A DNA stretch of 64,000 nucleotides from Candidatus Wirthbacteria bacterium (GTDB lineage: Bacteria > Patescibacteriota > CG2-30-54-11): the NCBI GenBank assembly GCA_903889905.1, contig CAISZI010000046.1, positions 64,853 to 128,852 on the forward strand, read 5' to 3'. This document shows, one piece after another, positions 14,510-63,968 of this stretch; positions within the stretch are counted from its first letter, which is position 1, and every line of letters begins with the position of its first letter. The position numbers were made by a program, and so were the translations under genes. The notes beneath the pieces are model-generated. The model worked only from the letters and a program-made list of their open reading frames with translations. It did not search any database and was not told the origin of the DNA.

Positions 14510-15094
14510 TCATTTCCCCTTGCACTGCAAAAAATTCGTCACCATCTGTTTGCCCACTTCCGTGCCAATCGATTCGGGATGAAACTGGATGCCTTCGATC
14601 GGGAACTGCCGATGCCGCAGTCCCATGATCAATCCGTCCTCGGTTTCTGCCGAAACCTCCAGTACCCCCGGCAACGACGACCGCTCCACCAGGAGCGAAT
14701 GGTAGCGCATGCCCAAAAAAGGATTTTCAATGCCGGCAAAAATACCCTGGCCGTCGTGACGGATCAAACTCTGTTTGCCGTGCAGAGCAATTGGCGCGCG
14801 CACCACATTGCCCCCAAAAATCGCCCCAATCCCCTGATGCCCGAGGCAAACGCCCAGCAGTGGTATCGTTTTACCCATTGCCAAAATCACTTCGCGGCAC
14901 ACCCCAAAGTAATGCGCATCCCGCGGATCTCCGGGCCCTGGTGAAATCACAATATGCGAAGGCATCAATAGCTGCGCTTCCTCCAGGCTGATCTGGTCGT
15001 TACGAAAAACCACCGGATTCCCACCCAGCTCACCAATGATCTGATAGAGGTTGTAGGTAAACGAATCGTAGTTGTCGATGATAAGCGTTTTCAT
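14510..15094 (-). CDS. trpG: Anthranilate synthase component II (glutamine amidotransferase)
   Basis: MKTLIIDNYDSFTYNLYQ..; catalytic GVCLGHQ; start overlaps the trpE stop (ATGA). Confidence 0.9.
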   Translation of the reverse strand: MKTLIIDNYDSFTYNLYQIIGELGGNPVVFRNDQISLEEAQLLMPSHIVISPGPGDPRDAHYFGVCREVILAMGKTIPLLGVCLGHQGIGAIFGGNVVRAPIALHGKQSLIRHDGQGIFAGIENPFLGMRYHSLLVERSSLPGVLEVSAETEDGLIMGLRHRQFPIEGIQFHPESIGTEVGKQMVTNFLQCKGK

Positions 15095-16665
15095 GGTTTG
15101 TCCTTTCTGTCATCGCGAGAAAGAGAACTCACCCTACCCTCTCTTTGGTAAAGAGAGGGTAAATGCATTACCCCCTTCCCTTTACTATAGGCCTTAGTCC
15201 CGTAAGGGGGAAGGGCTGGGGATGAGTTCATCTTTGCCAACTTCAGCGCCGCCTCCATTCCCCTCGCCTTGCGTTCAATTTCCTCCGCTTCCTGCTCTGG
15301 CGTCGAATCCTGCACCACGCCACTACCGACCTGGCTATAGGCTTTATCTCCCACGATAAACAAACTGCGCAGGCCGACCGAAAAAATACATTCCCCATTT
15401 AAACCAAACCCGCCAATTTCCCCGGCATACGGTCCACGCGGTGCTTTTTCCAAAGCGTGGATAATTTTCATGGCTTCAATTTTGGGCGCTCCCGATACCG
15501 TTCCCATGGGCGAAGCTGCACTAACGCAGTCAAACTGATTGAGTTCACTCCGCAACGTTCCCTTGAGTTTGCTTTCCATGTGCTGGACATGTGAAAAACG
15601 TTTGGGCACCATCAGTTCATCCACTTTGACCGACCCGAATTCACACACGCGCCCGAGGTCATTGCGGCCCAGATCGACGAGCATCATATGTTCGGCGCGT
15701 TCCTTGGCATTGGCGCGCATCGCGTCAAACAGAACTTCGTCCTCAGATGGTATCTGCCCACGCAAGGTGGTGCCGGCGAGGGGGAAATTCTCTACCACAA
15801 ACTGCTTCTGCGCATTGCGTCGCACCCTTGAAACCAAGTCCACGCTCGAGGTGATGATTTCTCGCTGGCCGAATTTGATATAAGACAAATAGGGCGATGG
15901 ATTGACCTGCCGCAAGGCATCATAAATGCGGCGTTTGTCACCCTGCAGTTCATAACCATACTGCACGGCCAGCACTACCTGAAAGATATCGCCCGCCGCA
16001 ATATGCTCTTTGGCTGTGTGGATCATTTGCAGGTATTCGTCCTGGGTTGTATTGCTGCCCAGTGCAGTAAAACCAAAAGTTCCAAACGTGGCAGGTGGGC
16101 CTGCGATCAGCGCGTCAACCCGTTTTCGGCGGTCGGCGCCAACCGTGAAGTAGCTGAGTTCGTGAAGCTGTTTGTCATAGACAATTCCATCCAAAAACAG
16201 TCCCAACTCAAACGCCGGGAAGTCTGGATGCTCACCAAACTCAACCGCTGGCTCAAAGTACTCAGTTGCTTCATAACCCAGATAGCCATACAACCCACCG
16301 GCGTAACCACTCCTGGGCAAAAGATGTGTCTGGATTTCCCGCAACGCATCATAAGGGTTGGCGCACTCCATCGATTTACCATCAACGATCAGCTGCCTGC
16401 CGCGCGCACTGACCATCTGCTCAGGCTCAAACATCAGCACCGAATAGCGCGAAAAGTCACTGTACTCGCCCAGGGACTCCAGAAATATCACGTGCTCAAA
16501 CTGGGCATAAGCACGCAAGAAGAGTTCGTAGATATCAATCTCAGACGGAATAACCTGTGCATGAAACTTGAGTGGAGGAATGTGAAAATAAGACATGGCG
16601 TGCCTGGCTAATGAATAAATTGCTGCATTAGCGTCGCCAATAGTGCCTTTTGTTTGTTTTGACAA
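15091..16665 (-). CDS. trpE: Anthranilate synthase component I with a non-canonical 45-aa C-terminal extension
   Basis: Chorismate-binding core (FLESLG..., GAPK, SGVVQDS). TTG start at 16665 preceded by GGGGAG; alternative ATG at 16596. The last 45 aa (...KGKGVMHLPSLYQREGRVSSLSRDDRKDKP) are encoded by hairpin-rich DNA at 15100-15240. Confidence 0.9.
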   Translation of the reverse strand: MSKQTKGTIGDANAAIYSLARHAMSYFHIPPLKFHAQVIPSEIDIYELFLRAYAQFEHVIFLESLGEYSDFSRYSVLMFEPEQMVSARGRQLIVDGKSMECANPYDALREIQTHLLPRSGYAGGLYGYLGYEATEYFEPAVEFGEHPDFPAFELGLFLDGIVYDKQLHELSYFTVGADRRKRVDALIAGPPATFGTFGFTALGSNTTQDEYLQMIHTAKEHIAAGDIFQVVLAVQYGYELQGDKRRIYDALRQVNPSPYLSYIKFGQREIITSSVDLVSRVRRNAQKQFVVENFPLAGTTLRGQIPSEDEVLFDAMRANAKERAEHMMLVDLGRNDLGRVCEFGSVKVDELMVPKRFSHVQHMESKLKGTLRSELNQFDCVSAASPMGTVSGAPKIEAMKIIHALEKAPRGPYAGEIGGFGLNGECIFSVGLRSLFIVGDKAYSQVGSGVVQDSTPEQEAEEIERKARGMEAALKLAKMNSSPALPPYGTKAYSKGKGVMHLPSLYQREGRVSSLSRDDRKDKP

Positions 16666-16995
16666 AAATCATCGCTGCTCCCCAAAAATTTAGACAACAA
16701 AAAACCTCTCGCCCTGGGTCCACGCAAAATCGTGAATCCAAAGGACGAGAGGTTTCTCTCATGGTGCCACCTTGCTTTACTGCTTTGCTCGCAAAACAGT
16801 TACTCTTCTCGACAGCGCTCCGCCGATTCGGCGGATGAACTGTCTAGCCTGTGATAACGGAGGCGGCCGTTTCGGCATTTTGCCGAGGTTATCCTTGGTC
16901 CATTCATTTGCGGATTGTGATGAAGCTTTCAGTCCGGGGCTTCACTTCCTGTTTCTAACCCGATGCAAATTACTCTACCAAGGAAAAGAACAATT
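16666..16995 (-). promoter_or_regulatory. T-box riboswitch leader of the trp operon (Trp specifier UGG; T-box AGGUGGCACC; long terminator hairpin)
   Basis: Minus-strand RNA reads ...AAUGAAUGGACC (UGG at 16900-16902) ... AAGCAAGGUGGCACCAUGAGAGAAACCUCUCGUCC ... GGGCGAGAGGUUUUUUGUUGU. The T-box element is at 16763-16772 with UGGC complementary to a GCCA acceptor end. A 12+9 bp interrupted hairpin followed by a U-run lies at 16701-16760, just upstream of the trpE RBS. Confidence 0.55.
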
Positions 16996-30291: not shown

Positions 30292-32937
30292 TTACATCCC
30301 CGCACTTAAGCGCGCAAATTCCACAAACATGGCCGTAAACACCACCACCATCACCACCGGTGCAATAATCGAGAGCCAGTTGCGCTGCCGTGGACGAAAC
30401 GAACGAATCAACAAAGAATTACTGACCACCGAGATGGAACTGACGGCCATGGCGAGCCCGGCCAGTTCCGGCTTCAGCACAAGACCAAAACCAGCTAGTG
30501 CGCGCGCCGCGATCGGGATGCCAATGACGTTGTAAAACAGCGAAAAGAACATATTCTGTTTGATTTTGCCAAACGTTTCGTTCGATAGTTCCAGTGCCGT
30601 AACCACATCGCGCAAATCGTTTTTGATGATGACGATGCCGCCCGCTTCCATGGCCACATCCGTGCCGCTGCCCATGGCAATGCCCAGATCTGCCTGCGCC
30701 AGAGCGGGCGAATCATTGATCCCATCACCAACCATGGCCACGTGTTTACCCATTCCCTGCAGCCGTTTCACCTCGTTGGCTTTGTCCTGCGGCAAGACTT
30801 CCGCAATCACATTCGTAATCCCCAGCTGCTTGGCAATGGCCATAGCTGTGAGCTGGTTATCTCCGGTCAGCATAAAGACCTCGATCTTGCGCTGCTGCAA
30901 CATTTTAATAGCTTCCCGCGACGTGTCTTTGACCGTGTCCGCCACGGCAATCGCACCGAGGATTTCCTTGGAGGTAGCCAGCAACATGACAGTTTTGCCC
31001 TGGGTTTCGAAGTTTTGCAGTTTGGCATTCACTGCGGTGAGGAGAAGTCCCAACGTTTCAACAACCAGTCGCCGGTTCCCCAAAAAGTAAGTCATCTCGC
31101 CAATCTGGCCTTGCACGCCGTGCCCGGGAATCGCCTTAAACTGCTGAACTTCGCTAAGCTCAACCTTTTGGCCTTTGGCATGGTTCAAAATCGCTTCGGC
31201 TAGCGGATGCTCCGACGACAACTCCAGGCTCGCCGCCAAACGAACAACCTCTGTGACTGAAATTTGACCAAAAAATTCCACATCCGTCACTTCCGGCTTG
31301 CCGTTGGTCAATGTTCCAGTTTTGTCAAAAACAATCGTATCGATGCGAGTCGCTGCCTCCAAGGGCTCACCACCTTTGATCAGAATCCCCTGCTCGGCAC
31401 CTTTGCCGGTACCGACCATAATTGCGGTTGGCGTGGCCAGCCCCAAAGCACAGGGACAGGCAATCACAATCACAGCGGTGAAGGCCATCAAGGCAAAGGA
31501 TAGTGTCGCACCAAGGACAAAAAACCAAACCAGAAAAGTCAGCAGTGCTATACCAATCACGCCCGGCACGAACACCGCCGCGATCCGATCAGCAAAACCC
31601 TGAATCGGTGCCTTGCTCCCCTGCGCATCTTCGATCAGTCGGATGATCTGTGACAGCGTTGTTTCGCTACCCACGCGTTCAGCAGCAAATTCAAAACTCC
31701 CGTGTTTGTTGAGCGTTGCGCCGATCACTTTGTCACCCACATTTTTTTCCACCGGCAGGCTTTCACCCGTCAGCATCGACTCGTCAACGGACGAATTGCC
31801 TTTCACGATGCGGCCATCCACCGGGATTTTTTCACCTGGTCGCACCAGCACAATGTCGCCTGCAACAACCTGCTCAATCGGGATGTCCACCATTTCACTG
31901 CCACGCACCACGCGCGCTGTCTTGGCTTGCAAACCCATGAGCTTGGTAATGGCTGACGAGGTCTGCCCTTTGGCGCGCATTTCGAGCCATTTACCCAGCA
32001 GCACAAAAGTAATCAAAAACGCGGCGGTTTCAAAATACAATTCCGGCACCATCTCGCCATTCAAGCCAAGTAGCGAGTGCTGCGTCAAAGCAAAATTGAT
32101 AAAATTAACCAGGCTGTACCCAAACGCCGTACTGGTGCCAATCGCAATCAGGCTGTCCATATTGAAAGTCCGCATCCGCAAAGCTGCCCAGAACCCTTTG
32201 TAAAACCCCACCCCGATCACAAACTGCACCGGTGTTGCCAGGATCAAGGAAGCTAAGCCAAAATAGGGCATCAAACTGGCACCCGGCAAAAATTTCAACC
32301 AGTTGAGCAGCATAAAATACAGCATCGGCAAACTCAAAACAGCCGCAACCCAGAAACGGTTCCAATAGGATTTGATTTCCTTGGCTCGCTTTTTGCGATC
32401 ATGGTCAGTATCACGACTATCGACAAGCGCAGCACCATAACCGGCCATTTTGACAGCGTTTTGCAGGACATCTGTTGCAACTCCGGCGCTGACAGTAACC
32501 AGTGCTTTTTCGGCGGCAAAGTTAACATTCGCCATTTGTACTCCCGGCACTTTGCGCAGTGATTTTTCGATCAGCAGCGCGCACGAGGCGCAGTGCATGC
32601 CCGAAAGGGAAAGAGAAACACGCTCGCTGCCAGTACTTGTCGCAGCCGGAGCCACAGACGGCTTTGCTGCAGACACAACAGACGTAGTCGCATGCGGTTG
32701 TTCTGAGGTTATCTCCTTTTCGCTGACGACAACAGCCTCATAACCATCCGCTTTGATGGTCTCTAAAACGCGCGCCAGGTCAACGGTGTCATCTGCAGTT
32801 ACTGTTCCACTACCGGTTTTGAAATCAGCCAAAACCGAATGAACTCCAGTCATTTCCCCAACGTCTTCCTTGATCAGCATTTCACACGATGCACAATGCA
32901 TACCGGTGATTTTGAGATTTACGATCTTCATGCTCAT
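30292..32937 (-). CDS. copA: Copper-translocating P1B-type ATPase with two N-terminal HMA domains
   Basis: GMHCASC x2, CPC transmembrane motif, DKTGTLT phosphorylation site, [10 protein letters not shown]. Preferred start MSMKIV at 32937; an in-frame upstream ATG exists at 33048. Confidence 0.9.
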
Positions 32938-32953
32938 TTTCCGGTTGAAAAGA

Positions 32954-33156
32954 TTAAACTTCGGCGACACTGTAATGAGTGTCCACCAGGGCCTGCGATA
33001 TCTCGTCTTTGCCAATGGCGCGAGCCGCCTCAATTTGGGTCGTGCCATCCAGGTTCACTTCCACTTTGGTCACACCTTCAATTTTGCCAATCCGCTTGCT
33101 GGCCATTTTGACACAACCTTCGCAGGTGATGCCATTTAACTTGATTGTTGTGCTCA
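32954..33156 (-). CDS. copZ: Copper chaperone (HMA domain)
   Basis: [18 protein letters not shown]...; RBS AAGGAAAG; 66 aa. Confidence 0.75.
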
Positions 33157-33185
33157 TACGTCTTTCCTTGTTGATGATAATAAAA

Positions 33186-34556
33186 CTAGGATCCTGCGGC
33201 GCTCTCCACCACGACAAACTTGCCCGGGTACATACCCATCGTGCAGTTAAACCGGATTTCTCCCACCTGCTGCGGCGTAAATTCGATCACATTGTCGCCC
33301 TGGGTTAAATTCTGACGAACGCCAAGCGTGGCAGCGATGATACCACTCGAACAGGAATAGGGATCAGTGCCGGTCACGATCCACCGTACCGGAATGCCTT
33401 TTTGGACAGTGAATTTGTTGGGCGTATACCCTGACGCCGATTGCCGCATGTGCACGACCTGAACTCCGTTTTCCAGCTTGACGTTGGCGTCACCGGGAGC
33501 TGCTGCGGTGGAACTGCCGGCGTCAAAAATCGAACTCCAGCCCGTCAGATTAAACCCATTGTTGAGGTTGAACAGAGCCAGTGCCACCACCAGCACACCC
33601 GCGAACTTATAAAATCGTTTGGCCCAGATGCCTTTGAATGCCGTAGACAAACCGCCCACGCTCAGCAGACCAGGAGCCGTCCCCAACGCAAACGTTGCCA
33701 TAATCAAGCCACCGGACAAAAAGTTGCCGGTCGTCATGGCATAAAGCTGCATCGATTGCGTAAATCCGCACGGCAGAAAAAACGTGAGAGCACCAAGAAT
33801 CATGGCATTGCGGTTGCTGTACTCGCGGTCTTTTTTCTCCTGCACACCCAACTTGCGACCCAACCACGACGGCAGCGCAAATGACCAGTTGGTGAGTCGA
33901 GGGAACAGATTGGTGAGCTGCAAACCCAGCGTGAGCATCACGACCGCCGCCCCGATCGTGAGCACCCCGAGCATCATGCCCGTGAGTTGGAACGCCTTGC
34001 CCAGCATGCCAATGATGCCGCCCAGCATAAAATACGAGGCAATACGTCCGATGTTAAATAAAAGATGTGGTGTGAACTTCTTCTGCCAGGTCGCGTCCAT
34101 ATTCGCTTCCGCAAAACGCGTCGATAGTCCCAGAATCAATCCGCCCACCAGTGCCATGCAGGTCGAGATTCCGGCCGTAAGCCCAACCAGAAACACTACC
34201 GCCAGACTGGATGGATTACCGCCACTGCCAATGCTTAAATTCATCAATCCCAGGGCCCGTGCCAAAACAACAACAAGGGCCACAAGTGCGGCGGCAAGCC
34301 CAAGTTCGACAAGCTCGGTGGAATCACGATTGATCAGAGCCTGTGGATCATCACGACCCACACTGTAGCCAGCTTCCTGCACCGCCTGTTTGAGCTGTTT
34401 CATGGCAAGCGGTTTGGCAGATACGATCTCGACCAAATTTTTCTTGTTACTGGCTTTGACTTTTTTGACACCCGGCAATTCCTGCAGCTTTTCTTCGACC
34501 AACATTTCGCAGGCTTTGCAGTGCATACCTTTGATCGGGACGATTATTTTTTCCAT
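33186..34556 (-). CDS. Three-part fusion: N-terminal HMA metal-binding domain, CcdA/DsbD-like polytopic membrane domain, and C-terminal cupredoxin-like extracytoplasmic domain
   Basis: GMHCKACEM at the N-terminus; about 8 TM helices with conserved Cys (LPCGFTQS); C-terminal beta-rich about 100 aa (...NCTMGMYPGKFVVVE) resembling a cupredoxin fold. Confidence 0.6.
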   Translation of the reverse strand: MEKIIVPIKGMHCKACEMLVEEKLQELPGVKKVKASNKKNLVEIVSAKPLAMKQLKQAVQEAGYSVGRDDPQALINRDSTELVELGLAAALVALVVVLARALGLMNLSIGSGGNPSSLAVVFLVGLTAGISTCMALVGGLILGLSTRFAEANMDATWQKKFTPHLLFNIGRIASYFMLGGIIGMLGKAFQLTGMMLGVLTIGAAVVMLTLGLQLTNLFPRLTNWSFALPSWLGRKLGVQEKKDREYSNRNAMILGALTFFLPCGFTQSMQLYAMTTGNFLSGGLIMATFALGTAPGLLSVGGLSTAFKGIWAKRFYKFAGVLVVALALFNLNNGFNLTGWSSIFDAGSSTAAAPGDANVKLENGVQVVHMRQSASGYTPNKFTVQKGIPVRWIVTGTDPYSCSSGIIAATLGVRQNLTQGDNVIEFTPQQVGEIRFNCTMGMYPGKFVVVESAAGS

Positions 34557-34570
34557 GCGAGTCCTTTTGT

Positions 34571-34846
34571 TTAGGTTTTGCTCACGAGCTTGGAAACAGT
34601 CAGGATTTCCTGCACCATTTTCTGTTTGCGTTCTTCGTTGGTCGTTTTCATGGCATTACTGAAACAGCTATTCAGGTGGCCTTCCATCATCATCTGGTGT
34701 GCGGACTTCAAAAGACCTATGACTGCCAGGTTCTGTTGCATGATGTCGATGCAGTACTCGCCGTCCTCGGTCATTTTGACGATGCGGTCGAGGTGGGAGC
34801 GAGCTTTTTTTAGGTTGACGAGTGTGGCTTGGTTTTTGGCATCCAT
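34571..34846 (-). CDS. csoR: CsoR/RcnR-family metal-sensing repressor
   Basis: 91 aa helical protein with ...GEYCIDIMQQ...H...C... ligand spacing; first gene of the copper operon. Confidence 0.7.
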   Translation of the reverse strand: MDAKNQATLVNLKKARSHLDRIVKMTEDGEYCIDIMQQNLAVIGLLKSAHQMMMEGHLNSCFSNAMKTTNEERKQKMVQEILTVSKLVSKT

Positions 34847-34866
34847 CCTTTTCTCCCATTAGATTA

Positions 34867-34889
34867 TACACCCACCTGGGGTGGAGGTA
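34867..34889. promoter_or_regulatory. Candidate CsoR operator (GC-rich pseudo-palindrome TACACCCACC-TGG-GGTGGAGGTA)
   Basis: The halves are 8/10 reverse-complementary; located 21-43 bp upstream of the csoR start. Confidence 0.45.
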
Positions 34890-35116
34890 ATACGAAACAA
34901 GAATAGCACCAAAACGCCAACATAGCTGTATAAAACTTGACATTATAGCTTTAAGTAAATTTTATCCCCGTGCCGTTAAAGTAGTGTTGTCATCGGGAGT
35001 GGTCGAACGATGGCACCATCAATCAACTCTCGCGCTAAAAGATGGATTTTAACCACTTAATCAGCAGGCAGTACTCGTCAGTTCATTCCTTTAACTATTA
35101 TTCTAAGGTGAAATCA

Positions 35117-35719
35117 ATGAAAAAATCGCTCAAAACCTATCTAACCGCCGGCGCCATTGTCGCCGTTGTCGGACTCGTCGGGACAGCGGGTGCGCTCACC
35201 GTCGCCCATGCGGCCACGACGACCAATTCCACTGTCTCCAATTTCATCTCCCAGGTAGCCACCAAAATCGGCATCAGCAGCGACAAGCTGCAGGCCGCGG
35301 TGGATTCGACCCGGACTGACATTCAGACGCAAACCCTGAGCACGGCTGTCACTAGTGGCAAAATGACTCAGGCCCAGGCCGACGTCTTGCAAAAAATTGA
35401 AACCTATCGCCAGACCGAACAGTCGACTGAAACTGCCGCTGCGCGTCAGACCGAAATGACTGCCCGCAAAACCGCCATGGATGCTTTGCCGAGCACGGCC
35501 ACACCAACGGAACGCCAGGCAGCCATGCAAAAAATCGAGGATCAAAACAACCAGACCATGGCAACAGCCCTGGGCATTGATATTTCAACCATTAACGATG
35601 CGCTCACAGCAGCCAAAACGGCTGGTATCGGCGGCCCAGGCATGGGTGGTCGCGGCATGGGCGGTGGGCGTGGTGGCATGCACGAAGGCGGCATGGGCAT
35701 GAGGGGTGGTGGATTCTAA
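35117..35719 (+). CDS. Secreted protein with a Q/T/A-rich helical region and a Met/Gly-rich C-terminus (GGPGMGGRGMGGGRGGMHEGGMGMRGGGF); possible Cu(I)/metal-binding periplasmic protein
   Basis: RBS AAGGTG then ATG at 35117; signal peptide MKKSLKTYLTAGAIVAVVGLVGTAGALTVAHA; Met-rich tail next to the copper operon. Confidence 0.5.
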   Translation: MKKSLKTYLTAGAIVAVVGLVGTAGALTVAHAATTTNSTVSNFISQVATKIGISSDKLQAAVDSTRTDIQTQTLSTAVTSGKMTQAQADVLQKIETYRQTEQSTETAAARQTEMTARKTAMDALPSTATPTERQAAMQKIEDQNNQTMATALGIDISTINDALTAAKTAGIGGPGMGGRGMGGGRGGMHEGGMGMRGGGF

Positions 35720-35819
35720 ACTCAAACGAAATTAACCAGCAAAGCCATCCTGGCCCGGAGTCAGAATGGCTTTGCTGCAAGCATTGGTCACTTGACCAAA
35801 TCCCGTTAAGGCCTATAAT

Positions 35820-36085
35820 CAAAGCACAATTAAATACAGCTCGTGCCACTTTTAGTAATTGTTGCCATGTTGAAACGTTAGCGATCGGGGAAAAACCAGG
35901 TGCAAGCCCCGACAACCCAGCCACAATGAAACGCAATTGGCATACAGCGAGCGACCAATGAGCCCGCCAGATTCTGGGTCAAAATTTTGATCCCATGATC
36001 ACCACGGGGAACCAGGGTGGTACCACGAAGTGAATAACTCCTTCGTCCCGACAATTTTGTCGTGATGGCGGAGTTTTTTGTTGTC
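35820..36085 (+). promoter_or_regulatory. T-box-like riboswitch leader upstream of argCBD (specifier region AAUGAAACGCAA; T-box AGGGUGGUACC; terminator)
   Basis: Promoter TTGACC (35792-97), 16 nt, TATAAT (35814-19). Stem I base GCUCGUGCCA/UGGCAUACAGCGAGC. T-box consensus at 36014-36024. Terminator ACUCCUUCGUCCCGAC-AAUUUU-GUCGUGAUGGCGGAG followed by UUUUUU (36038-36079). Confidence 0.55.
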
Positions 36086-36109
36086 TTAATTTTCATCAGG
36101 GAGGACGTC

Positions 36110-37117
36110 ATGCTTAACATCGGTATTTACGGCGCCTGCAGCTACACCGGATTGGAACTGGTGCGCTTGCTAAATCGTCATCCCCATGTACGTATCGTCT
36201 TCATGACTTCCGATACTTTTGCCGGGAAAAAACTCTGTGACGTAGCCCCCGTGCCATTCGACCATATGCTGCACCCGCATCACCACGTCCCGTCCGCACC
36301 GATCGACCTGGCTTTTCTGGCACTGCCTTCTGACAAAGCGGCATTACTGGCTGGACCAATGCTGTCAAAAGGTACAAGAGTTATTGACCTGTCAGCTGCC
36401 TTTCGCCTGCATGATCCGAATCTTTACGAGCGCACCTACCACAGGGTGCACCCAGCACCGCAGCTGTTGTCCTCCGCGGTCTATGGGTTACCGGAACTGC
36501 ATCGCAACCCAATCCAACAAGCCCAACTGGTCGCCAATCCCGGCTGCTATCCGACCAGCGTATTACTCGCCCTTGATCCACTGGCCAGAGCACATGCAAT
36601 CGCCGGGACGGTCATCATCGACGCCAAATCCGGCGTTTCCGGCACAGGTAAAACACCAGCAGCCAACAATCACTTTGTGGCTGTTAACGAAAACGTTCTG
36701 CCTTACGCTCTGGGCAACCAGCATCGCCATGTGCCAGAAATGGAACAGGAATTGCAGGCTATTGATCCGGGCTTTGCGCTGATCTTTTCACCTCACCTGG
36801 TACCCGTAAGTCGCGGTATTTTGTCCACACTGTATGTGCCTCTGCAGAACAGTTGGGACGAAGCCATGGTGCGGTTCCTGCTGGAGGATTTTTACCGGCA
36901 CGAGCCGTTTGTCCGCATGTTGCCCGCCGGTCAAACCGCGACCATGGCCCACAGCCAGGGCAGCAATGTCTGCGTGCTGTCGCTGCATTTTATTCCCTCA
37001 CCGCGGCAACTCGTGCTCTGTTCGTCAATCGACAATCTGATCAAAGGCGCGAGTGGCCAGGCAATCCAGAACATGAACCTGATGTTTGGCCTGGACGAAA
37101 CCACGGCCCTGCTTTAA
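36110..37117 (+). CDS. argC: N-acetyl-gamma-glutamyl-phosphate reductase
   Basis: MLNIGIYGACSYTGLELVRLL...; catalytic Cys in PGCYPTS; RBS GGGAGG. Confidence 0.9.
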   Translation: MLNIGIYGACSYTGLELVRLLNRHPHVRIVFMTSDTFAGKKLCDVAPVPFDHMLHPHHHVPSAPIDLAFLALPSDKAALLAGPMLSKGTRVIDLSAAFRLHDPNLYERTYHRVHPAPQLLSSAVYGLPELHRNPIQQAQLVANPGCYPTSVLLALDPLARAHAIAGTVIIDAKSGVSGTGKTPAANNHFVAVNENVLPYALGNQHRHVPEMEQELQAIDPGFALIFSPHLVPVSRGILSTLYVPLQNSWDEAMVRFLLEDFYRHEPFVRMLPAGQTATMAHSQGSNVCVLSLHFIPSPRQLVLCSSIDNLIKGASGQAIQNMNLMFGLDETTALL

Positions 37118-37131
37118 TCCAAGGAAAAACC

Positions 37132-37905
37132 ATGCTCATTATTAAAATCGGTGGCAATGACATTGATGACCCGCCGTTTCTCGTCCGTTTTACCCAAGCC
37201 GTAGTCAAGCTGCCCGACATTCCCGTCATCGTCCACGGCGGTGGCAAGGAAATCGCCGCACTGCAGACCCTACTTGGACTCAAGCCACAGTTCATCAACG
37301 GCCTGAGGGTAACCGATGAAGAGTCTCTCCAGGTTGCCCAGATGGTACTTTGCGGCCGCATCAACCAGCGCCTCGTGGCCGCATTCGAACATGCCGGTGG
37401 CGACGCCATGGGATTAAGTGGAGCAGATCGCGGACTGCTTGCGGCACGCAAACTAAAAATTAAAAATGGCGATCTCGGTTTTGTTGGCCTGATCACCCGC
37501 GTCAAAGCGACGGTGCTGCTGGAACTTACCCAACAAACTATCATCCCGGTCGTCGCGCCCATCGCCTGGTCTCGAACCCACGCCTTCAATATCAATGCCG
37601 ATAGCTGCGCCTGTGCCATTGCCAAGGCGTTAATGGCGGACGAACTGATGTTCGTGACCAACGTCCCAGGAGTTATGCGGGACAAGCTGACAATCCCATC
37701 CCTCACGCCAAAACAAGCTCAAACGCTGATCCACAAAAACATTATCACCGGTGGCATGCTTCCCAAAGTCCGCTCTGCGATCAAAGCGGTACAAAGCGGC
37801 GTACCCAAAGTCCGCATCACCAGTCTCGACGGACTTGGCCAAAACAAAGGCACGATATTCACACCAGACAAAACCCATGTGTCCACTGACAAGGAGTTGC
37901 GATGA
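37132..37905 (+). CDS. argB: Acetylglutamate kinase
   Basis: MLIIKIGGNDI...VIVHGGG..; amino-acid kinase fold. Confidence 0.9.
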   Translation: MLIIKIGGNDIDDPPFLVRFTQAVVKLPDIPVIVHGGGKEIAALQTLLGLKPQFINGLRVTDEESLQVAQMVLCGRINQRLVAAFEHAGGDAMGLSGADRGLLAARKLKIKNGDLGFVGLITRVKATVLLELTQQTIIPVVAPIAWSRTHAFNINADSCACAIAKALMADELMFVTNVPGVMRDKLTIPSLTPKQAQTLIHKNIITGGMLPKVRSAIKAVQSGVPKVRITSLDGLGQNKGTIFTPDKTHVSTDKELR

Positions 37906-39119
37906 ACACCGCTCAAATCATCCAGGCTGAACACGATTTTCTCGCCCCGACCTATACCCGTCCGCCCTTTGTGCTCAATAGCGGCAAAGGCTGCTATCTG
38001 GAGGACACGGATGGCAAGCGCTACCTCGACACCGGTGCCGGCATAGCGGTCAACGCGCTCGGCTATGGTGACGACAGTCTTGCACGAGCCATGCAACAGA
38101 GCGCCATCGGACTGATCCACACCTCCAATTTGTACTACAACGAACCCCAAATACAGCTCGCCCAAATGCTTGTCAAGAATTCCTTCGCCGACAAAGTCTT
38201 CTTCGCCAATTCCGGCACCGAAGCCAACGAAGCCGCAATCAAATTTGCCCGCAAATTTCAGGTTGAAAATGGCAACCCTGACCGCAAAGACATCATCGCC
38301 TTTTACGGCAGCTTCCACGGCCGCACCATGGGCGCTCTGGCGCTTACGGACAGCGAAAAATACCAAGCTCCCTTTCGCCCGCTCATGCCCGGCGTCACCT
38401 TTGCCGAGTTCAACGACATGGCCTCTGTGCGACACAAAATCAGCAAGCATACCGCCGCAATAATCATCGAACCCATCCAGGGCGAGAGTGGCATTCACCT
38501 CGCCACCACCGCGTTTCTCCAAAACCTGCGCCAGCTTTGCACGGACCAAGGCATCTTGCTCATCTGCGATGAAGTCCAATGTGGCCTGGGCCGTACCGGC
38601 AAGCTCTGGGCTCACCAGCACGCCAGCATCACACCCGACCTCATGACCATTGCCAAACCGCTCGCGGCCGGACTTCCGCTTGGCGCCGTGCTCATGATCG
38701 ACCAGGTTGCGAGCGCCATGCATACAAGCGAACACGGAACGACCTTTGGCGGAGGTCCTTTTGTCTGCAGTGTCGCGTTGCATGTTCTCCAAAGATTATG
38801 CGACCCAAAATTCCTGTCCCACGTCCAAACAACTGGCGAAGATCTCATGACCAAACTCAAACAGCTCCAGTCTCCACTGCTCAAGGAAGTTCGGGGGATG
38901 GGGCTGATGATCGGCGTAGAACTTACCATCGACGTGGGCAAAGTCAAAAAATTGGCCTACGAGCAAGGCTTGATCCTGATTCAAGCCAGGGACAATGTGC
39001 TCCGACTGATCCCCCCGCTGATTTGGGGAAAAGCGGAAACCGAAGCACTCCTCAATCGATTGACCGGATTACTTATTCCAGAACTCATCGCTATCGAGCA
39101 AAATGGACGTCAGCCGTAA
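37902..39119 (+). CDS. argD: Acetylornithine aminotransferase (class III PLP aminotransferase)
   Basis: GSFHGRT...; LICDEVQCGLGRTGK PLP-lysine motif; start overlaps the argB stop. Confidence 0.9.
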   Translation: MNTAQIIQAEHDFLAPTYTRPPFVLNSGKGCYLEDTDGKRYLDTGAGIAVNALGYGDDSLARAMQQSAIGLIHTSNLYYNEPQIQLAQMLVKNSFADKVFFANSGTEANEAAIKFARKFQVENGNPDRKDIIAFYGSFHGRTMGALALTDSEKYQAPFRPLMPGVTFAEFNDMASVRHKISKHTAAIIIEPIQGESGIHLATTAFLQNLRQLCTDQGILLICDEVQCGLGRTGKLWAHQHASITPDLMTIAKPLAAGLPLGAVLMIDQVASAMHTSEHGTTFGGGPFVCSVALHVLQRLCDPKFLSHVQTTGEDLMTKLKQLQSPLLKEVRGMGLMIGVELTIDVGKVKKLAYEQGLILIQARDNVLRLIPPLIWGKAETEALLNRLTGLLIPELIAIEQNGRQP

Positions 39120-42100
39120 ACGATCCATGCCTTGCTGCAACAAACTGACAAAATACTGTTCACCGGCGCTGTCTGTACCGCGCTCCAAAATTTGCTGGTA
39201 CTGCTCCTGCACATATTTGGCATTAAATTCATATGAAATAAAAAAGTCACGGATCACCTGCTGCTTGGTTTTGACACCATCATTGATGACACTGGTCCAG
39301 TACGCCATACCATTGGGCTCACCGGCCCGATTCATGAAATTCAAGTAAAGCGCCTGCATAAAACTTGTCGTATTCTGATCTAAAAACTCCGGTGCATCGA
39401 CAAAGTTGGCGATCAGGTCTGTTTTGCTAAGCCCCTGCAACATTTGGGTGGTCCAGTAACTTAGTCCAGCTGGATCGGCATCACGCTGCATAAAAGTATG
39501 ATAAATATTCTGCACATAATTGCGGTAATCCTCTTCTGTATTGAGATAAGCACGGATGATACCCAGTTTCGTTGCCTGACCACTTAACAACCGGTTTTCC
39601 CAGTAGGACAATCCATTGGGATCCGCATTGCGGCCAAGCACCCGGGTATACATGCGTTTGACAAAACTGTACGCACGCACCTCGCCAAGCGGTTTGATAT
39701 TGCTGACAATCACGGTAATGTCATTACTATTCCCGGCCACGTCCATCATGCTAAAAGTAAAATTCCCGTTTTGCGTAAAGCTGTAGCTAAAACTACCACC
39801 GTTATTCGTCATCGTCACGGGTTCATTGGCCGTCACTGTTACCACGACCGGGCCCAATGTCGGCTCGGTGGTGGAGTACATCGTATTGAGCAGTTGCGGA
39901 CGGGTATAATCAATACCGCTGATTTCCGCTGACGGCAGATAGTCACTGTTCCCATTGCCATCCGTCGCGCGAAAACAAACGACTTTTCCATTATCCGATT
40001 CTGCGGTAAAAACGATTGCGTGCTGATCGATAAAGCCACTACCGCTGCAATCTTCCTGCTTGTTCGCCAGGACTTTAAGCATCAAAGTACCGTAGTTGAC
40101 GACGGCAGAAACCACCTTGCCATGCGCGGGAGTCAGTGTTGGGTCCGTGATCTGGATGACTGGCAAGGCAGCGGCGATTCCCGCGATCGCGACGGAAAGT
40201 TGATAATCATGATTGCCGAGACTATCGAAGGCGTAATAACAGACCCGCTTGCCATTATCGGCGACATTGCTGAAAGTCAGGCTTTGATAGGTACCAAAGG
40301 TTAATGTTGCGTCACAGACCGCACCTGTCGTCACCGCTTGCGTCAAAGTGCCTTTATTGGCACTGGCTGTGATTGTTTTGGTCGTGGCAAGGGAGCTATC
40401 CGGAGCATGAATGGTGATGACTGGTTTGGTGATGTCGATGTTAATGGGATAAGCCGACGCCAGCTCGCTCGCATTATGTGAAGCATCTTCACCATACAGG
40501 CAAAGATACTGGCCATCGTGCGTTTGATCGGTTTGATTCATGCTGTCGCTGTCGACATGATCGTAATCGCTGGCGCTGACTGAACAGGTCGTATTGATGT
40601 TATATTTCCATTTTTTTACACTGGCGTCGCCCCAGCTTGCCGCGATCGTGTCACTGAGAACTGGTCCCTGCGCCACATTGTCGGTAAAGCTCAAAGTGGG
40701 CGGGATCACGTCCATATTTTGTGCTGCCACCACCGCCTGATAGGCATTCAGCCGTTTGCCGCCAATCACTTTGCTGGACAGGCTGGCAAGCACGTCGCCA
40801 GTCTGCAGTAGAGCCGTTTTGATATTGCTGGCCGAAAGGTCCGGTCGCATACCCATCATCATGGCGACTGTGCCCGCAACATAGGGCGTGGCCATCGAGG
40901 TGCCATCTTTAAAAACATAAGACCCCACTGCAGCGGCGGTGTCATAAAGGTTGAGATTGTCGATGTAGCAGGCATCGTTGGGCTTGTCTCCGCCAGCGGC
41001 ATCGGTATGCCAGACAAAGCGGACCCGAAAAGCAGACCCGGCATAATTGCTCAAATCAAACGTGGTGGTACCAGAACCATAGCTGGGTGCAAAACCCAGG
41101 ACTCCCCAGGTTGTCCCATTGGCCGACGCTTGCATTTCAAGGTAATCGGGACTGGTATGGGTAGCGCTGATCAGGGCAATGTCACAACGGTAATCAAATT
41201 TAATATACCCGCCCCCATAACTCATGGCATTGGAAGTCAGGATTGAGTCCACTCCAGCACGGTAGTTGGGATAGCTAGCATCACTATAAAGCACCGTGTT
41301 GTTGGTAATGTTAGAGTGATACGTGGCCCATGTACCACTTCCCGTTTGGGTGAAATACGTACCCAGTCCCGGGGGTGTTACCGATTCAAAATTTTCAGTC
41401 ACTGCAATATCCGGCACTGTACTCAAAATCGTTTGACCAGGCGCAGCCAGATCCACCGTGGTGGCGCCATAATCGGAAAAGGAACTGAGTTGATCGCTGG
41501 AATTTGATGCGGCAACAACGATTACGTTACCCAAACCTGGCCCCGCCGGAGAGGTGGACTTGAAGCCAGCCGGATAGTCGACATAAGCACCGCCCAGATC
41601 ATGATTATAAGCTGAATTTCCGGCTGCTGCCACAAACAATCCCGGGAATCCCGCAATCGCGTTATACATGGCCTGGTCGATGGAGACATCACCATAGCCA
41701 CCAAAACTGGCATTGATCACCTTGGCGCCATTGACACCGGCAAAATGAATGGCCTGCACAATTTGAGCGGTAGACAGGTCGGTCTTGAGCGCCATGATTC
41801 TGGCATTGGACGCTATGCCGGCCACACCAATGCTATTGTTAATTTGCGCGGCAATAATCCCGGCCACATGTGTCCCATGATCACTGCTGGTGGGTAAAGG
41901 AATCTTGTCATTGTCTTCAAAGTCATAACCATGCTGGCAACCTCCTAATGCAGCGCCTTGATCATCCAGACAGCTACTACCATCCCACATACTGGCAAGT
42001 AAATCCGGATGATTGTAAGCAACGCCAAGGTCAATCACAGCCACAGTCACTGCCGGAATGCTATTGCCTGCCTGACTCCATGCCTGCGGCCCATCAATAT

Positions 42101-42560
42101 CAGCATCGTTCGTGCCAGCAGTGCCATTCACACTTTGGCCCGTGTTATCCAGTCCCCACAGTGAACTGGCATAGGTATCGTTGGTGCCCAACGCGGATTC
42201 ACGATATTGATAATTGGGTTGGGCATATTCAACCAGCGGATCGTTTTGCAGTTCTTTGACTTTATCAGCCACCGATTTGCCATCATCAATTTTAGCAACA
42301 CTCATCTGGGTGCTGACCTGATCAAGACGGATCAGTTTGTGCCAGTTTTCACTACTCATGGCCTGCGCGGAATCGACCGTAACACCTTGACCGGATTTGT
42401 ATTTGATCAGTACTTCGCCGTCTTTGTAGGGAGGCAGAGATTGTGTCGTTGTCGTAAAAGTCGAAAAACCCGTTTTTTGCTCACCCTGCACCGGCAAGAC
42501 AAAGAGAAAAAGACTGAGCAAACCTGCAATAAAACACGTCAAACCCTTTTTGGTACCCAT
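39069..42560 (-). CDS. Large secreted subtilisin-like (S8) serine protease with a long beta-rich middle region and C-terminal DUF4214 repeats
   Basis: Signal peptide; catalytic triad contexts VIDLGV(D), HGTHVAGII(H), GTSMATPYVAG(S); three C-terminal repeats of the ...DADPAGLSYW... type. 1163 aa. Convergently overlaps the argD 3' end by 51 nt. Confidence 0.85.
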   Translation of the reverse strand: MGTKKGLTCFIAGLLSLFLFVLPVQGEQKTGFSTFTTTTQSLPPYKDGEVLIKYKSGQGVTVDSAQAMSSENWHKLIRLDQVSTQMSVAKIDDGKSVADKVKELQNDPLVEYAQPNYQYRESALGTNDTYASSLWGLDNTGQSVNGTAGTNDADIDGPQAWSQAGNSIPAVTVAVIDLGVAYNHPDLLASMWDGSSCLDDQGAALGGCQHGYDFEDNDKIPLPTSSDHGTHVAGIIAAQINNSIGVAGIASNARIMALKTDLSTAQIVQAIHFAGVNGAKVINASFGGYGDVSIDQAMYNAIAGFPGLFVAAAGNSAYNHDLGGAYVDYPAGFKSTSPAGPGLGNVIVVAASNSSDQLSSFSDYGATTVDLAAPGQTILSTVPDIAVTENFESVTPPGLGTYFTQTGSGTWATYHSNITNNTVLYSDASYPNYRAGVDSILTSNAMSYGGGYIKFDYRCDIALISATHTSPDYLEMQASANGTTWGVLGFAPSYGSGTTTFDLSNYAGSAFRVRFVWHTDAAGGDKPNDACYIDNLNLYDTAAAVGSYVFKDGTSMATPYVAGTVAMMMGMRPDLSASNIKTALLQTGDVLASLSSKVIGGKRLNAYQAVVAAQNMDVIPPTLSFTDNVAQGPVLSDTIAASWGDASVKKWKYNINTTCSVSASDYDHVDSDSMNQTDQTHDGQYLCLYGEDASHNASELASAYPINIDITKPVITIHAPDSSLATTKTITASANKGTLTQAVTTGAVCDATLTFGTYQSLTFSNVADNGKRVCYYAFDSLGNHDYQLSVAIAGIAAALPVIQITDPTLTPAHGKVVSAVVNYGTLMLKVLANKQEDCSGSGFIDQHAIVFTAESDNGKVVCFRATDGNGNSDYLPSAEISGIDYTRPQLLNTMYSTTEPTLGPVVVTVTANEPVTMTNNGGSFSYSFTQNGNFTFSMMDVAGNSNDITVIVSNIKPLGEVRAYSFVKRMYTRVLGRNADPNGLSYWENRLLSGQATKLGIIRAYLNTEEDYRNYVQNIYHTFMQRDADPAGLSYWTTQMLQGLSKTDLIANFVDAPEFLDQNTTSFMQALYLNFMNRAGEPNGMAYWTSVINDGVKTKQQVIRDFFISYEFNAKYVQEQYQQILERGTDSAGEQYFVSLLQQGMDRLRLTSILLDSDEFWNK

Positions 42561-42779: not shown

Positions 42780-45700
42780 TTACTCGCCAGGAGTAATCAC
42801 CTTGCCTGCTTGACTCAACACCGTCCCGACGATTTGGCCATACTGCACTACCATTTCCGGAGAAAAATGCAATGCTGACAGGGTAGAATTGAGGGAATTG
42901 AGCATGCTCACTAATGATTCGATGCCTCCTTCAATCCGATTGCGATGGCTCCAGCTCAGCAAATCGGCCAGCAACCCGTCCAGCGAAACATTCTCACTGG
43001 TATATCGATCCGGTTCTTGCACCTTGAATTTTTCATCCAATAAGTTGGCCATCATCTCCACGTTCCTGCTGACCACGGCTAACATCAACCCAAAGTACAA
43101 ATCCCAGTCTTCTGCCTTGAACTCAACAATTTCGCCAAAATCAAGCAAAGATGTCTGCTCTCCATTGACCATTAAATTTCCGGGATGTAAATCGCGCGGA
43201 TAGCGGTGTCCCTGTTTCATGACTTCCACCATCTGCCCAAGTGCTTTCATGATTTGTAGGGCCAGGGTCGGATTGTTTTCAACATCCTCTCCCACCATTG
43301 ACGGTTGCTTCACTGCATCACTGCTTATCTGTGCCAACGTCTTGCCTGCTATTTTTTGCATAATCAAAACGCGTTTGTCTGGCACACTGTTCACCGCAGG
43401 GATACCGAGATCAAGGCCAAGCGCTCTTACCTGATTGGCATACCACTGCATATTAGTCGCTTCATGTCGCATATCGATCGACCCTTCCAACTCCCGGAAC
43501 AGATCCTGCAGTAAACTGTCAATATCCACTTTCACAATGCCCTGTTGGTGTAACTTGGCAAAAATGGTGGTGGCGTAATTCTTGAGTTTTCCTAGATGAC
43601 GTTTGGTTAAATGCAAACGCACAATTTTGGCAACTTTGGTCACCTTATCCTCTTGTCCGTGAGCGGATTTGGGTAGCAATTCCACAACCGTGGCCTTACT
43701 GGCACTGCCCAATACCTTGCCAAATCCATCGAACTGCCCAGTCAATCCCAACTGCCGGAATAAATCCATCAAAGCTGATTTGGATATATCAGGTAAGTCA
43801 TCATAGAACGTCTGCAACTCACCCCGCAGGCCGGCGTCCTGTATCAAACTGGCATTCTGTCCCGCGATCCGTCCCAACAAGTCGCCGGCGGAAAGCATCA
43901 TGGCAATCAATTCCGACTTCGTCGGTCGACGCTCACTTTCTGCATCGAACCGGATCACCAACTCGACAAATTGCGCCAGGAGCTCGGCCCGATCTTCGGG
44001 CGTGACACTGCCAAAGACTGTCTCCAACACCGTCTGCAGTGTTTGCTTTTCTGTTGCACTCCATGTCTCAGATGTCGCAGCTTCGCCAGAATCCGTTGGC
44101 GATGGTGTTGTGTAATAATCGACGATATCGTGCAACCATTTCAACCCCGCTGTGGCAAAGTTTTCGGCTGTCATAAAGCCATTGTTGCTGACTGCCAGTC
44201 GATAGACAATCTCGCGCACTTCACTGTGACTGGCAGTGCGAAACAATTTACCCAGGGAATTAAAACTGAGCGTTTTGATCTCACCCGAAACTCCGCTCAG
44301 GCTATCTGCCAGAAACGAAACAGTACCTGTTTCATCATCTGAGGGAATCACAAAAACCAGATTGAGAAAATCCACTGCATAAATTTCCCCATTTTTACTA
44401 CTTTTGCCGGAACCTCTTTGCAATGATGCCCCTAACTGTTTTCCAAGACGCTCATGGTGCTTAGTAAACTCTGTCAGCCGCTGTTCAAAAGTGGAAACTC
44501 TCGACCGCCTGCGTTGCAGTTCTGGTTCGTTATTGGGATGCAGAAACACGAGCAACAGTTCGATGATTTCATCCAAAGCTACGGCGATTTCTGCAGCAGT
44601 GAATTTGGGATTATTTTTGTTAATATCCCGAACCCCATCTGAAAGACGCTTCTGCAACAATCCTGCCAAATTGGATCGGACGCGCGGAGTAAAAAAATCT
44701 TTTGTAATATCCTGCGGACACAACACGTGCTCACGTCGATCCAACAAAAATGTCATCATGTCCGCATTGTTCTGAGGAGGCTGATGGTCAGCCAATCCCG
44801 AAAGCAATCCCAGCCCATACCCCCGTGCTGCCAAGGTGTCGATATTCGTTGCATAATTATAACCAATTTGCAGTTGTCGCGCCTTTTGAATTTGTTCCCA
44901 GGTGGCAGAATGGGTTCGCAATAACTGTTCAATTATATTGTCTCTCGCAGAGTTCGGCTCAGGTAAATATTTTTCGACAATCGCCATCAGCTGCATTAAA
45001 TCATTGCTGGCGTTGTGGTCCAATTCCAGCATGGTCAATTTCACACCCAGATGGGCTTTTAATTCAGGTCCATGGCTCAAATCCCAAGCTGCTTTGCATA
45101 CCGCCAAGGAATCTTCGTCCGCGGCCAACGGTTGGTTGCGATAAAGATAATCAAACAGAAGTTGTCCAATCAATAAATCCCGATACAAAGAAGACGGCAT
45201 GTATGCTTCAATCTGAGCCATTGTCTCAAACAAATCCCAACCCTGTTCGATCTGTTTGTTAAAAAAATCAGTATAAACATTTTTTCTTCTGATGCCATAG
45301 ACAAGCGATTTTCGCGCAACTTGTTTGAGGGCATCTTCCTTTGCAAGCTTTTCAACTTCGTGCTGGAAGCGGTAATGTAGTGAGTCATCATATTCAACCA
45401 ACATGCGCTCCTGCTGCAACGCTATGCGTTCGGACCAATCTGAAGAGCGCAAGGCAATATCGTATCGGAAACCGTCCAGGACAGGCATCAGCTTAATCAT
45501 ATCCGCAGAATCTCCCTCCTGCCTGTCAACCGCCGCATAATATGCCGGACTGAGTTGTCGCAACACGAAACGAGTTAGATCCAATCCCACTTCATCATCA
45601 TAACCCAAGAAATCGACCAGTTGATTGTCTTTATAGGCACAGGCTGGATAACGCTCCAATTGACGCATGCGAGTGATTGTATACACTTTCTTAGCGATTT

Positions 45701-63798: not shown

Positions 63799-63830
63799 GG
63801 TGATATTATAGCATCTGAAGTATTTATTTT

Positions 63831-63876
63831 GTCAATCAATTGACATATAAAGTACTTTATATGTCAATTGATTGAC
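63831..63876. promoter_or_regulatory. Perfect 46-bp palindrome (GTCAATCAATTGACATATAAAGTAC|GTACTTTATATGTCAATTGATTGAC) overlapping the -35 region of the DUF4143 ATPase gene
   Basis: Exact reverse-complement symmetry over 46 nt; contains TTGACA on both strands. Positioned 33-78 bp upstream of the ATG at 63798. Confidence 0.8.
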
Positions 63877-63968
63877 GGCCTCCTAAAAAACTCGAACACC
63901 ATATCATGGCTTCACAACGCCATTCTGATACAATTTCGGACAGGTGGTTAAAATCCCTCAAACACAAA

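Follow-up and report, generated by a model that had tools for sequence, protein, structure and literature searches.

How is the argC-argB-argD operon controlled in a bacterium whose arg leader, the interval 35792-36109 of a 64,000-nucleotide stretch of DNA (referred to here as the window, i.e. the whole stretch that was analysed), resembles a T-box? A preliminary description of this DNA had proposed that the leader carries a T-box motif, a terminator and a specifier codon for arginine. Judged by its sequence, the leader is a genuine, unusually trimmed T-box, and, on the combined weight of motif searches and structural models, it probably operates as a transcriptional T-box riboswitch that is specific for tRNA-Arg and controls argC-argB-argD. 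The sections below consider the build of the leader, the register in which its specifier is read, the strength of its resemblance to known T-boxes, and the quite different leader that is found before the same operon in the nearest relatives.

The arg operon and the build of its leader

The leader interval is bounded on its 5' side by the hairpin that closes an ORF at 35042-35719 and on its 3' side by the start of argC. The genes argC, argB and argD, each identified with an NCBIfam model (Table 1), are co-directional, and, as the preliminary description had reported, argJ is missing from the operon. The start of argB was taken from the called gene in an identical metagenome copy of the locus (L081). 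The operon ends with argD, which is followed by a convergent gene for a subtilisin-like protease (39069-42560, minus strand, 1163 aa). A sigma-70-like promoter at the 5' edge of the interval is the sole promoter-like site within 35600-36300, and it would place the transcription start of the arg leader near 35826. At the other end, the ribosome-binding site and the argC ATG lie 20-30 nt 3' of the terminator's U-tract. Because that ribosome-binding site falls outside both the terminator and the antiterminator, control is expected to be exerted at the level of transcription.

Other features of the window are included in Table 1. A copper- or metal-resistance cluster (30292-35719) directly precedes the arg leader. 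On the far side of the operon, the first 1680 residues of a 1965-aa ORF gave no match to any Pfam family at E values up to 1e-5, and the matches of two adjacent ORFs to the MFS_1 transporter profile are both confined to its first half (positions 3-172 and 1-176 of 347); this pair may be what is left of a transporter gene that was duplicated or disrupted, or else an assembly error. Near the end of the window, just past the start of an ORF at 62623-63798 (minus strand), there is a near-perfect, AT-rich palindrome of ~74 nt (63819-63892; ...GTCAATCAATTGACATATAAAGT/ACTTTATATGTCAATTGATTGAC...), the match of which to a miRNA, seen on both strands, was rejected as spurious.

Table 1. Positions of the features discussed in the text, in window coordinates except for the leaders of the relatives, which are given by locus.
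Feature	Position	Strand	Evidence or remark
Promoter, sigma-70-like, TTGACC / 16-nt spacer / TATAAT	35792-35819	+	11/12 consensus positions
Stem I	35839-35952	+	Rfam alignment and minimum-free-energy folds
Stem I, basal helix	35839-44 / 35947-52	+	GCUCGU / GCGAGC
Stem I, lower helix	35845-48 / 35938-41	+	GCCA / UGGC
Stem I, upper helix	35858-62 / 35923-27	+	AUUGU / ACAAU
Specifier loop, 5' side (half of S-turn)	35854-35857	+	AGUA, aligned to conserved AGUA of RF00230
Distal Stem I platform motifs	35880-35905	+	Aligned to AGAGA and GGUGaaA consensus
AG-bulge variant AGCGA	35880-84	+	RF00230 alignment
GGUGCAA in enlarged distal loop	35899-35905	+	RF00230 alignment
Specifier loop, 3' side	35928-35935	+	GAA (35928-30), A (35931), CGC (35932-34), conserved purine A (35935)
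Single long hairpin replacing Stem II, Stem IIA/B and Stem III	35963-36008	+	-18 kcal/mol
T-box sequence AGGGUGGUACC (also written AGGGTGGTACC)	36014-36024	+	Exact match to GGGTGGNACCNCG
Antiterminator helix	36015-36049	+	7-nt bulge UGGUACC; -9.6 kcal/mol, weaker than terminator
Intrinsic terminator	36036-36079	+	16-bp interrupted stem 36036-36075, U6 at 36074-79
Ribosome-binding site GGGAGG	36099-36104	+	5 nt before argC ATG (36110), from sequence
argC, N-acetyl-gamma-glutamyl-phosphate reductase	36110-37117	+	NCBIfam TIGR01850, 360 bits (cut-off 233.6)
argB, acetylglutamate kinase	37132-37905	+	NCBIfam TIGR00761, 227.6 bits
argD, acetylornithine aminotransferase	37902-39119	+	NCBIfam TIGR00707, 464 bits
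trp T-box leader	16738-16995	-	RF00230, 68.2 bits; specifier UGG; T-box bulge UGGC
trpE	15091-16665	-	Downstream of trp T-box
194-aa ORF, taken for trpG (putative)	14510-15094	-	
Fused trpD-trpC, 663 aa	12517-14508	-	Glycos_transf_3 and IGPS domains
P-type ATPase	30292-33048	-	HMA domains
456-aa protein with N-terminal HMA/CopZ-like domain	33186-34556	-	Weak match to C-terminal part of nitrous-oxide reductase model (L-NosZ)
CsoR-type repressor	34571-34846	-	
225-aa ORF	35042-35719		No family match; Gly/Met-rich tail GMGGRGMGGGRGGMHEGGMGMRGGGF
1965-aa ORF	42780-48677	-	Sole domain C-terminal, ABC1 atypical kinase-like, residues 1682-1878
Two adjacent ORFs, 176 and 202 aa	49081-50241	-	21 nt apart
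argC leaders of nearest relatives	L084:88-292; L086:2264-2492; L088:2224-2430; L210:1284-1496		
argC leaders of nearest relatives, further	L211:1290-1496; L212:1240-1458; L213:10-212		

The Rfam T-box model, RF00230, aligns over its whole length (positions 1-219) with 35839-36053 of the leader (plus strand), scoring 26.7 bits, and the alignment together with the predicted folds gives a consistent picture of the element. Above its basal, lower and upper helices, Stem I ends in a distal helix in which UCGGGG pairs with CCCCGA, and there are 4-nt insertions in both the AG bulge and the distal loop. Stem I is without a K-turn (GA motif) at its base; the alignment has deletions at the UGA and GA positions of the model, and in the fold a 5-nt bulge, AUACA (35942-46), occupies that place. 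Neither Stem II nor the Stem IIA/B pseudoknot is recognisable, as RF00230 skips the former and deletes the latter. The hairpin found in their stead, which spans the 46 nt before the T-box and is followed by AA (36010-11), is no better than shuffled sequences (z = -1.6).

The T-box sequence extends into a longer core that reads AGGGUGGUACCACG at 36014-36027, or GGGUGGUACCACG at 36015-27, and its UGGU (36018-21) has the tRNA 3' end, ACCA, as its predicted partner. In the antiterminator fold, this tetranucleotide is part of the bulge, the elements following one another as GGG / UGGUACC bulge / ACGAAG...CUUCGU / CCC. The terminator, at -20 kcal/mol, is the stronger of the two structures (z = -4.8, with 0 of 200 shuffles as good), and the strand 36039-49 is common to its 5' arm and to the 3' arm of the antiterminator, making the two pairings mutually exclusive. 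The three elements singled out in the preliminary description, i.e. the T-box motif with its UGGU, the hairpin followed by six U residues and the motif AATGAAACGCAA on the 3' side of Stem I, were all recovered, the last of these at 35925-35936 on the 3' side of the long stem.

From this architecture, the binding of a tRNA, the identity of that tRNA and the regulatory outcome can be predicted. Transcription would start at the promoter and Stem I would form first, offering CGC in the specifier loop as well as a distal platform for the elbow of the tRNA. When arginine is scarce, the anticodon of uncharged tRNA-Arg (ICG or GCG) would pair with CGC while its 3' ACCA pairs with the UGGU in the antiterminator bulge, and this pairing would stabilise the weak antiterminator and let polymerase read through into argC. 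When tRNA-Arg is charged, on the other hand, its acceptor end would be unable to pair, the stronger terminator would form and transcription would stop before the operon.

Specifier register and strength of the T-box match

The assignment of the specifier depends on the register in which the 3' side of the specifier loop is read. RF00230 puts A-CGC-A on model positions 90-94, with CGC at 91-93 and with high posterior probability, whereas the alternative register gives ACG (35931-33, Thr) followed by C. That positions 91-93 are the ones to be read is borne out by six independent leaders with known downstream genes, all of which carry the expected codon there: UGG in the window's own trp leader (before trpE) and in a trpS leader, UUC in a pheS leader, and CUC in each of the ilvB, ilvD and leuA leaders. 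In all six, the codon is followed by one nucleotide and then by the lower helix. The CGC specifier put forward in the preliminary description was thus both assigned by the model and upheld by the register seen in other leaders. The window contains no tRNA genes, and the sole tRNA-Arg among the loci examined came from an unrelated spirochaete.

The threonine codon had been named from the start as the alternative: a functional T-box might be read in another register, mainly as ACG by tRNA-Thr or as both overlapping codons, ACG and CGC, by two tRNAs. In four of five high-scoring leaders, as well as in the window's trp leader, the codon comes directly after GAA, position 90 being deleted; unlike most leaders checked, the arg leader has one extra A between GAA and CGC, and the common geometry would make it GAA-ACG-C. 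The lower helix that fixes the CGC register is weak, requiring a C x U mismatch and a single A-U pair, and a further A-U pair (A35935-U35851) would shift the loop to the Thr register, closing a 6 x 7 loop like that of the trp leader. There are leaders in which a pyrimidine follows the codon (C in L206 and L092), and, according to TBDB, many leaders permit more than one frame (PMC7778990). Yet the three genes downstream are all specific to arginine, the conserved purine A comes directly after CGC where ACG has a C, and the covariance model selects CGC with a full-length, consensus-like 7 x 8 loop. Usage points the same way: of the Arg T-boxes in TBDB, 52% have CGC as their specifier, more than have any other codon, and 1% of the Thr T-boxes have ACG (PMC7778990). 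Among the Arg codons in the genes of the window, too, CGC ranks first (34%), and the chance of finding the right amino acid at the specifier is about 6/64. The Thr register is therefore geometrically viable and nonetheless improbable, being disfavoured by the genes downstream, the purine after CGC, the usage of specifiers and the loop geometry of the model, and a T-box that is answered by both tRNA-Thr and tRNA-Arg through the overlapping codons is the less likely option as well. If the element is functional, its specifier is very likely that for arginine.

How securely, then, is the leader identified as a T-box at all? At gathering thresholds, an Rfam scan of the window returned no match whatever, and the RF00230 search that had been suggested at the outset gave a T-box match that, at 26.7 bits, is well below the gathering score of 93. 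The match is detectable in the E-value mode of Rfam and not in its default mode; its E value is 6e-4 when 701 nt are searched and 0.056 when all 4227 families are run against the whole window, and by simple arithmetic the latter corresponds to about 1e-5 for one family alone. The window's trp leader (68.2 bits) and the pheS (88.5), lysA (52.2) and leuS (38.8) leaders also score below 93, and, because these plain T-boxes fail too, the failure is best regarded as a property of the model and not of the mechanism. The low score of the arg leader is explained by the deleted K-turn positions, the skipped Stem II, the deleted Stem IIA/B, and the insertions in the AG bulge and distal loop. At the same time, AGUA, AGCGA, GGUGCAA, GAA and GGGUGGUACCACG all occupy their expected positions in the model. 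Single features carry less weight, i.e. the 13-nt core motif by itself is expected to occur about once per window with up to one mismatch, which is chance level, and the Stem I fold is no better than that of shuffled sequence (z = -0.1). The ensemble of T-box features in the arg leader exceeds chance.

These figures also bear on a second alternative, likewise improbable and ranked just beneath the first, in which the leader is a decayed T-box or a chance look-alike and the terminator is either constitutive or governed by another regulator, such as a protein, or ArgR bound elsewhere. Such a reading would account for the sub-threshold score, for the missing K-turn and Stem II and for a core 13-mer of the kind expected by chance, and it is compatible with leader copies that are all identical. 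It fits poorly with the intactness of the S-turn halves, the codon with its purine and the distal motifs, all in the correct order and at the correct spacing, and with a 7-nt bulge, an AA after the pre-T-box hairpin and an overlapping terminator that are likewise intact. Moreover, T-boxes of the glyQS type work without Stem II, the codon of the arg leader fits the operon that it precedes, and a score below 93 bits is shared by other plain T-boxes.

The presence in the window of a second T-box, with 68 bits and a UGG specifier, before a trp operon indicates that the organism uses the mechanism. In that operon (Table 1), the ORFs that come after trpD-trpC are presumably trpF, trpB and trpA. A recent origin of the arg leader by duplication of the trp leader was considered and rejected, as an alignment of the two shows only the core motifs of the family to be alike.

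Leaders of related arg operons

An ArgC identical to that of the window occurs in three ENA metagenome assemblies (L081-L083), and, since the leaders there are identical too, they provide no covariation signal. The next ArgC in a collection of 5.8 billion proteins is 61% identical, and all of the named top matches belong to Chloroflexota or Anaerolineales metagenome-assembled genomes; on this basis, the host is read as a rather isolated Chloroflexota-like lineage. A T-box before argC was found in none of the 80 loci retrieved when 185,579 species genomes were scanned with ArgC (best identity, 52%), and in none of the seven closest ArgC relatives (56-61% identity), all of which were subjected to a motif search and three of which (L084, L086 and L088) were additionally scanned with Rfam at E values up to 1. 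A pattern scan of metagenomes with TGAANCGNAN{55,85}AGGGTGGTACCRCG matched 120 loci, none of them near argC, argB or argD. The seven that were checked with Rfam all proved to be T-boxes of other specificities, in which the opening half of the pattern had picked up Stem II instead of the specifier; representative genes downstream of the pattern loci look like leuA, leuS, pheS, lysA, trpS, ilvB and ilvD. In a short-word blastn comparison of the arg leader with the 120 T-box loci, only the T-box core of 14-22 nt was matched. As a separate observation, a tRNA-Glu(UUC) gene lies about 30-250 nt 3' of argC in six loci (L017, L035, L040, L042, L047 and L052), most of which are labelled Dehalococcoidia.

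The seven nearest ArgC relatives, all from Chloroflexota metagenome-assembled genomes, share one strongly conserved leader that is not a T-box (Table 1). It comprises a TTGACA/TATATT promoter, a ribosome-binding site and an ORF of 25-33 codons, and in six of the seven this ORF contains the invariant or near-invariant run CCU-CGC-CCG-CGU (P-R-P-R), as in MTCNTFSPRPRPTPAHRSGAFVVAR, along with further Arg codons. The leader peptide of L086 is divergent, with the clustered Arg codons and the downstream segments kept. Four segments, CACCAG / GGTCTGGTG / CCCAGACC / GGTCTGGG, are followed by a U-run; segment 2 is complementary to segment 3, and the segments can form 1:2, 2:3 and 3:4 hairpins; two of these, the 1:2 hairpin and the 3:4 terminator, also emerge from RNAalifold, with a small number of compensatory changes. 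The layout of this leader suggests a ribosome-mediated attenuator of the trpL type in which the regulatory codons are those for arginine. In the three loci scanned (L084, L086 and L088), it matched no Rfam family, and a limited literature search found no published description of it.

Some further observations were made on the relatives. In L084 (3299-3851), L086 (5487-5939) and L088 (5641-6008), a gene for a GNAT acetyltransferase comes after argD and possibly encodes a short N-acetylglutamate synthase; the L084 operon additionally carries argG after argD, whereas that of the window ends at argD. Among more distant Chloroflexota, Arg-rich short ORFs (e.g. ...LRRVRRRRLQV, VLNSRRRRGS... and ...ALRSRRSRRL...), each followed by a terminator-like hairpin, occur within about 450 nt before argC in Roseiflexus (L001) and in Anaerolineae (L002, L004, L005, L006 and L021); attenuation by Arg leader peptides may be common across the phylum.

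The comparison with related genomes that had been recommended in the preliminary description furnished no second Arg T-box, the nearest argC loci being without one, and revealed a putative Arg leader-peptide attenuator in its place. Like the T-box of the window, the attenuator of the relatives would act on the argC-argB-argD operon through a choice between termination and antitermination, and would sense the charging of tRNA-Arg. Unlike the T-box, it would use as its sensor a ribosome stalled at CGC/CGU, with no direct pairing between tRNA and leader RNA, and the two leaders have no sequence similarity. The comparison suggests that two different RNA devices sense tRNA-Arg charging on the same operon.

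The remaining possibility is that the window's operon is itself under leader-peptide attenuation or ArgR repression, with the T-box not in control. ArgR/AhrC, a protein that responds to free arginine, represses arg operons by attaching to ARG boxes in the DNA, and so resembles an Arg T-box in providing feedback control of the genes for arginine biosynthesis. A computed scan of 35720-36110 for the ARG box (TNTGAATWWWWATTCANW, usually tandem), allowing up to four mismatches, found no match in the promoter and leader region, in keeping with what had first been judged by eye; across the whole window, there were 11 matches against 10.2 expected, i.e. the number due to chance. No Arg_repressor (ArgR) domain was detected among the 36 window ORFs scanned, and no Arg-rich short ORF in 35820-36112. 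Hence, although ArgR is the classical regulator of the pathway and the putative Arg leader-peptide attenuator is conserved ahead of argC at seven related loci, control by either is very improbable here, as the leader has neither a short ORF with clustered Arg codons, nor the GGTCTGG/CCAGACC segments, nor an ARG box, and the scanned ORFs include no Arg_repressor domain.

Relation to known systems and significance

The tRNA-Arg-specific T-box that is favoured here for the window can be compared with several known systems. Arg T-boxes were reportedly described by Vitreschak et al. in 2008 as an expansion of the T-box regulon after the loss of ArgR. In Clostridioides difficile 630 they precede argCJBDF, argG, argH and artPQM (Sun et al. 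2013, PMC3766115, Additional file 2), and in C. bartlettii there is one before argCJBD (PMC3766115, Additional file 2). Thus, the view first taken of the locus, that T-box control of an arg operon is in itself notable, was overstated, because such elements before argCJBD(F) were already catalogued. The Peptostreptococcaceae Arg T-boxes and that of the window are alike in being transcriptional, in having an Arg specifier, in lying directly before an operon that begins with argC, and in filling the usual role of ArgR. However, the former belong to Firmicutes, whereas the window comes from a Chloroflexota-like lineage and its operon has neither argJ nor argF; the window leader is also reduced, with a low score against a model that is dominated by Firmicutes, and only one Arg T-box is visible in the window, as compared with the several of C. 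difficile.

As to the reduction, leaders of the glyQS type in Bacillus subtilis, Geobacillus and Oceanobacillus work without Stem II and have no Stem IIA/B. They share with the arg leader the succession of Stem I, linker, one hairpin, antiterminator and terminator, and even the AG-bulge variant AGCGA. Differences are that the arg leader is probably specific for Arg and not Gly, that its basal K-turn is gone as well, that its AG bulge and its distal loop are larger, and that its pre-T-box hairpin is much longer.

Within Chloroflexi, T-boxes have been catalogued for glyS, ileS, pheS, serS, thrS, trpB/trpS and valS (PMC3766115, Additional file 2). The specificities in the catalogue's five Chloroflexi genomes are Gly, Ile, Phe, Ser, Thr, Trp and Val, with none for Arg and none on arg genes (PMC3766115), and Dehalococcoides has T-boxes only for ileS and trp (trpE/trpB) (PMC2494555). 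These elements resemble the window's in being transcriptional and in including a biosynthetic operon, trp, among their targets, and the trp leader of the window belongs with them. An Arg T-box is apparently unreported in Chloroflexota.

Since both the mechanism and the type of operon targeted are already known from C. difficile, what is new lies in the phylum of the host and in the reduced architecture; the arg leader reveals no new mechanism. A bolder proposition, held tentatively and at somewhat less than even confidence, is that this is the first Arg T-box outside Firmicutes, that it arose in a deep-branching Chloroflexota lineage whose relatives use an undescribed attenuator on the orthologous operon, and that one sensor of tRNA-Arg charging was thereby replaced by a mechanistically different one, in a group that seemingly makes no use of ArgR there. 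With the arg leader, Arg T-box control of arginine biosynthesis would no longer be confined to one family of Firmicutes and would include a Chloroflexota-like lineage. A strongly reduced T-box such as this, without K-turn and Stem II, is missed at the Rfam default, and leaders of the kind are probably under-annotated in metagenome-assembled genomes. Together, the window and its relatives offer a compact natural example for studying the exchange of regulatory RNAs in evolution.
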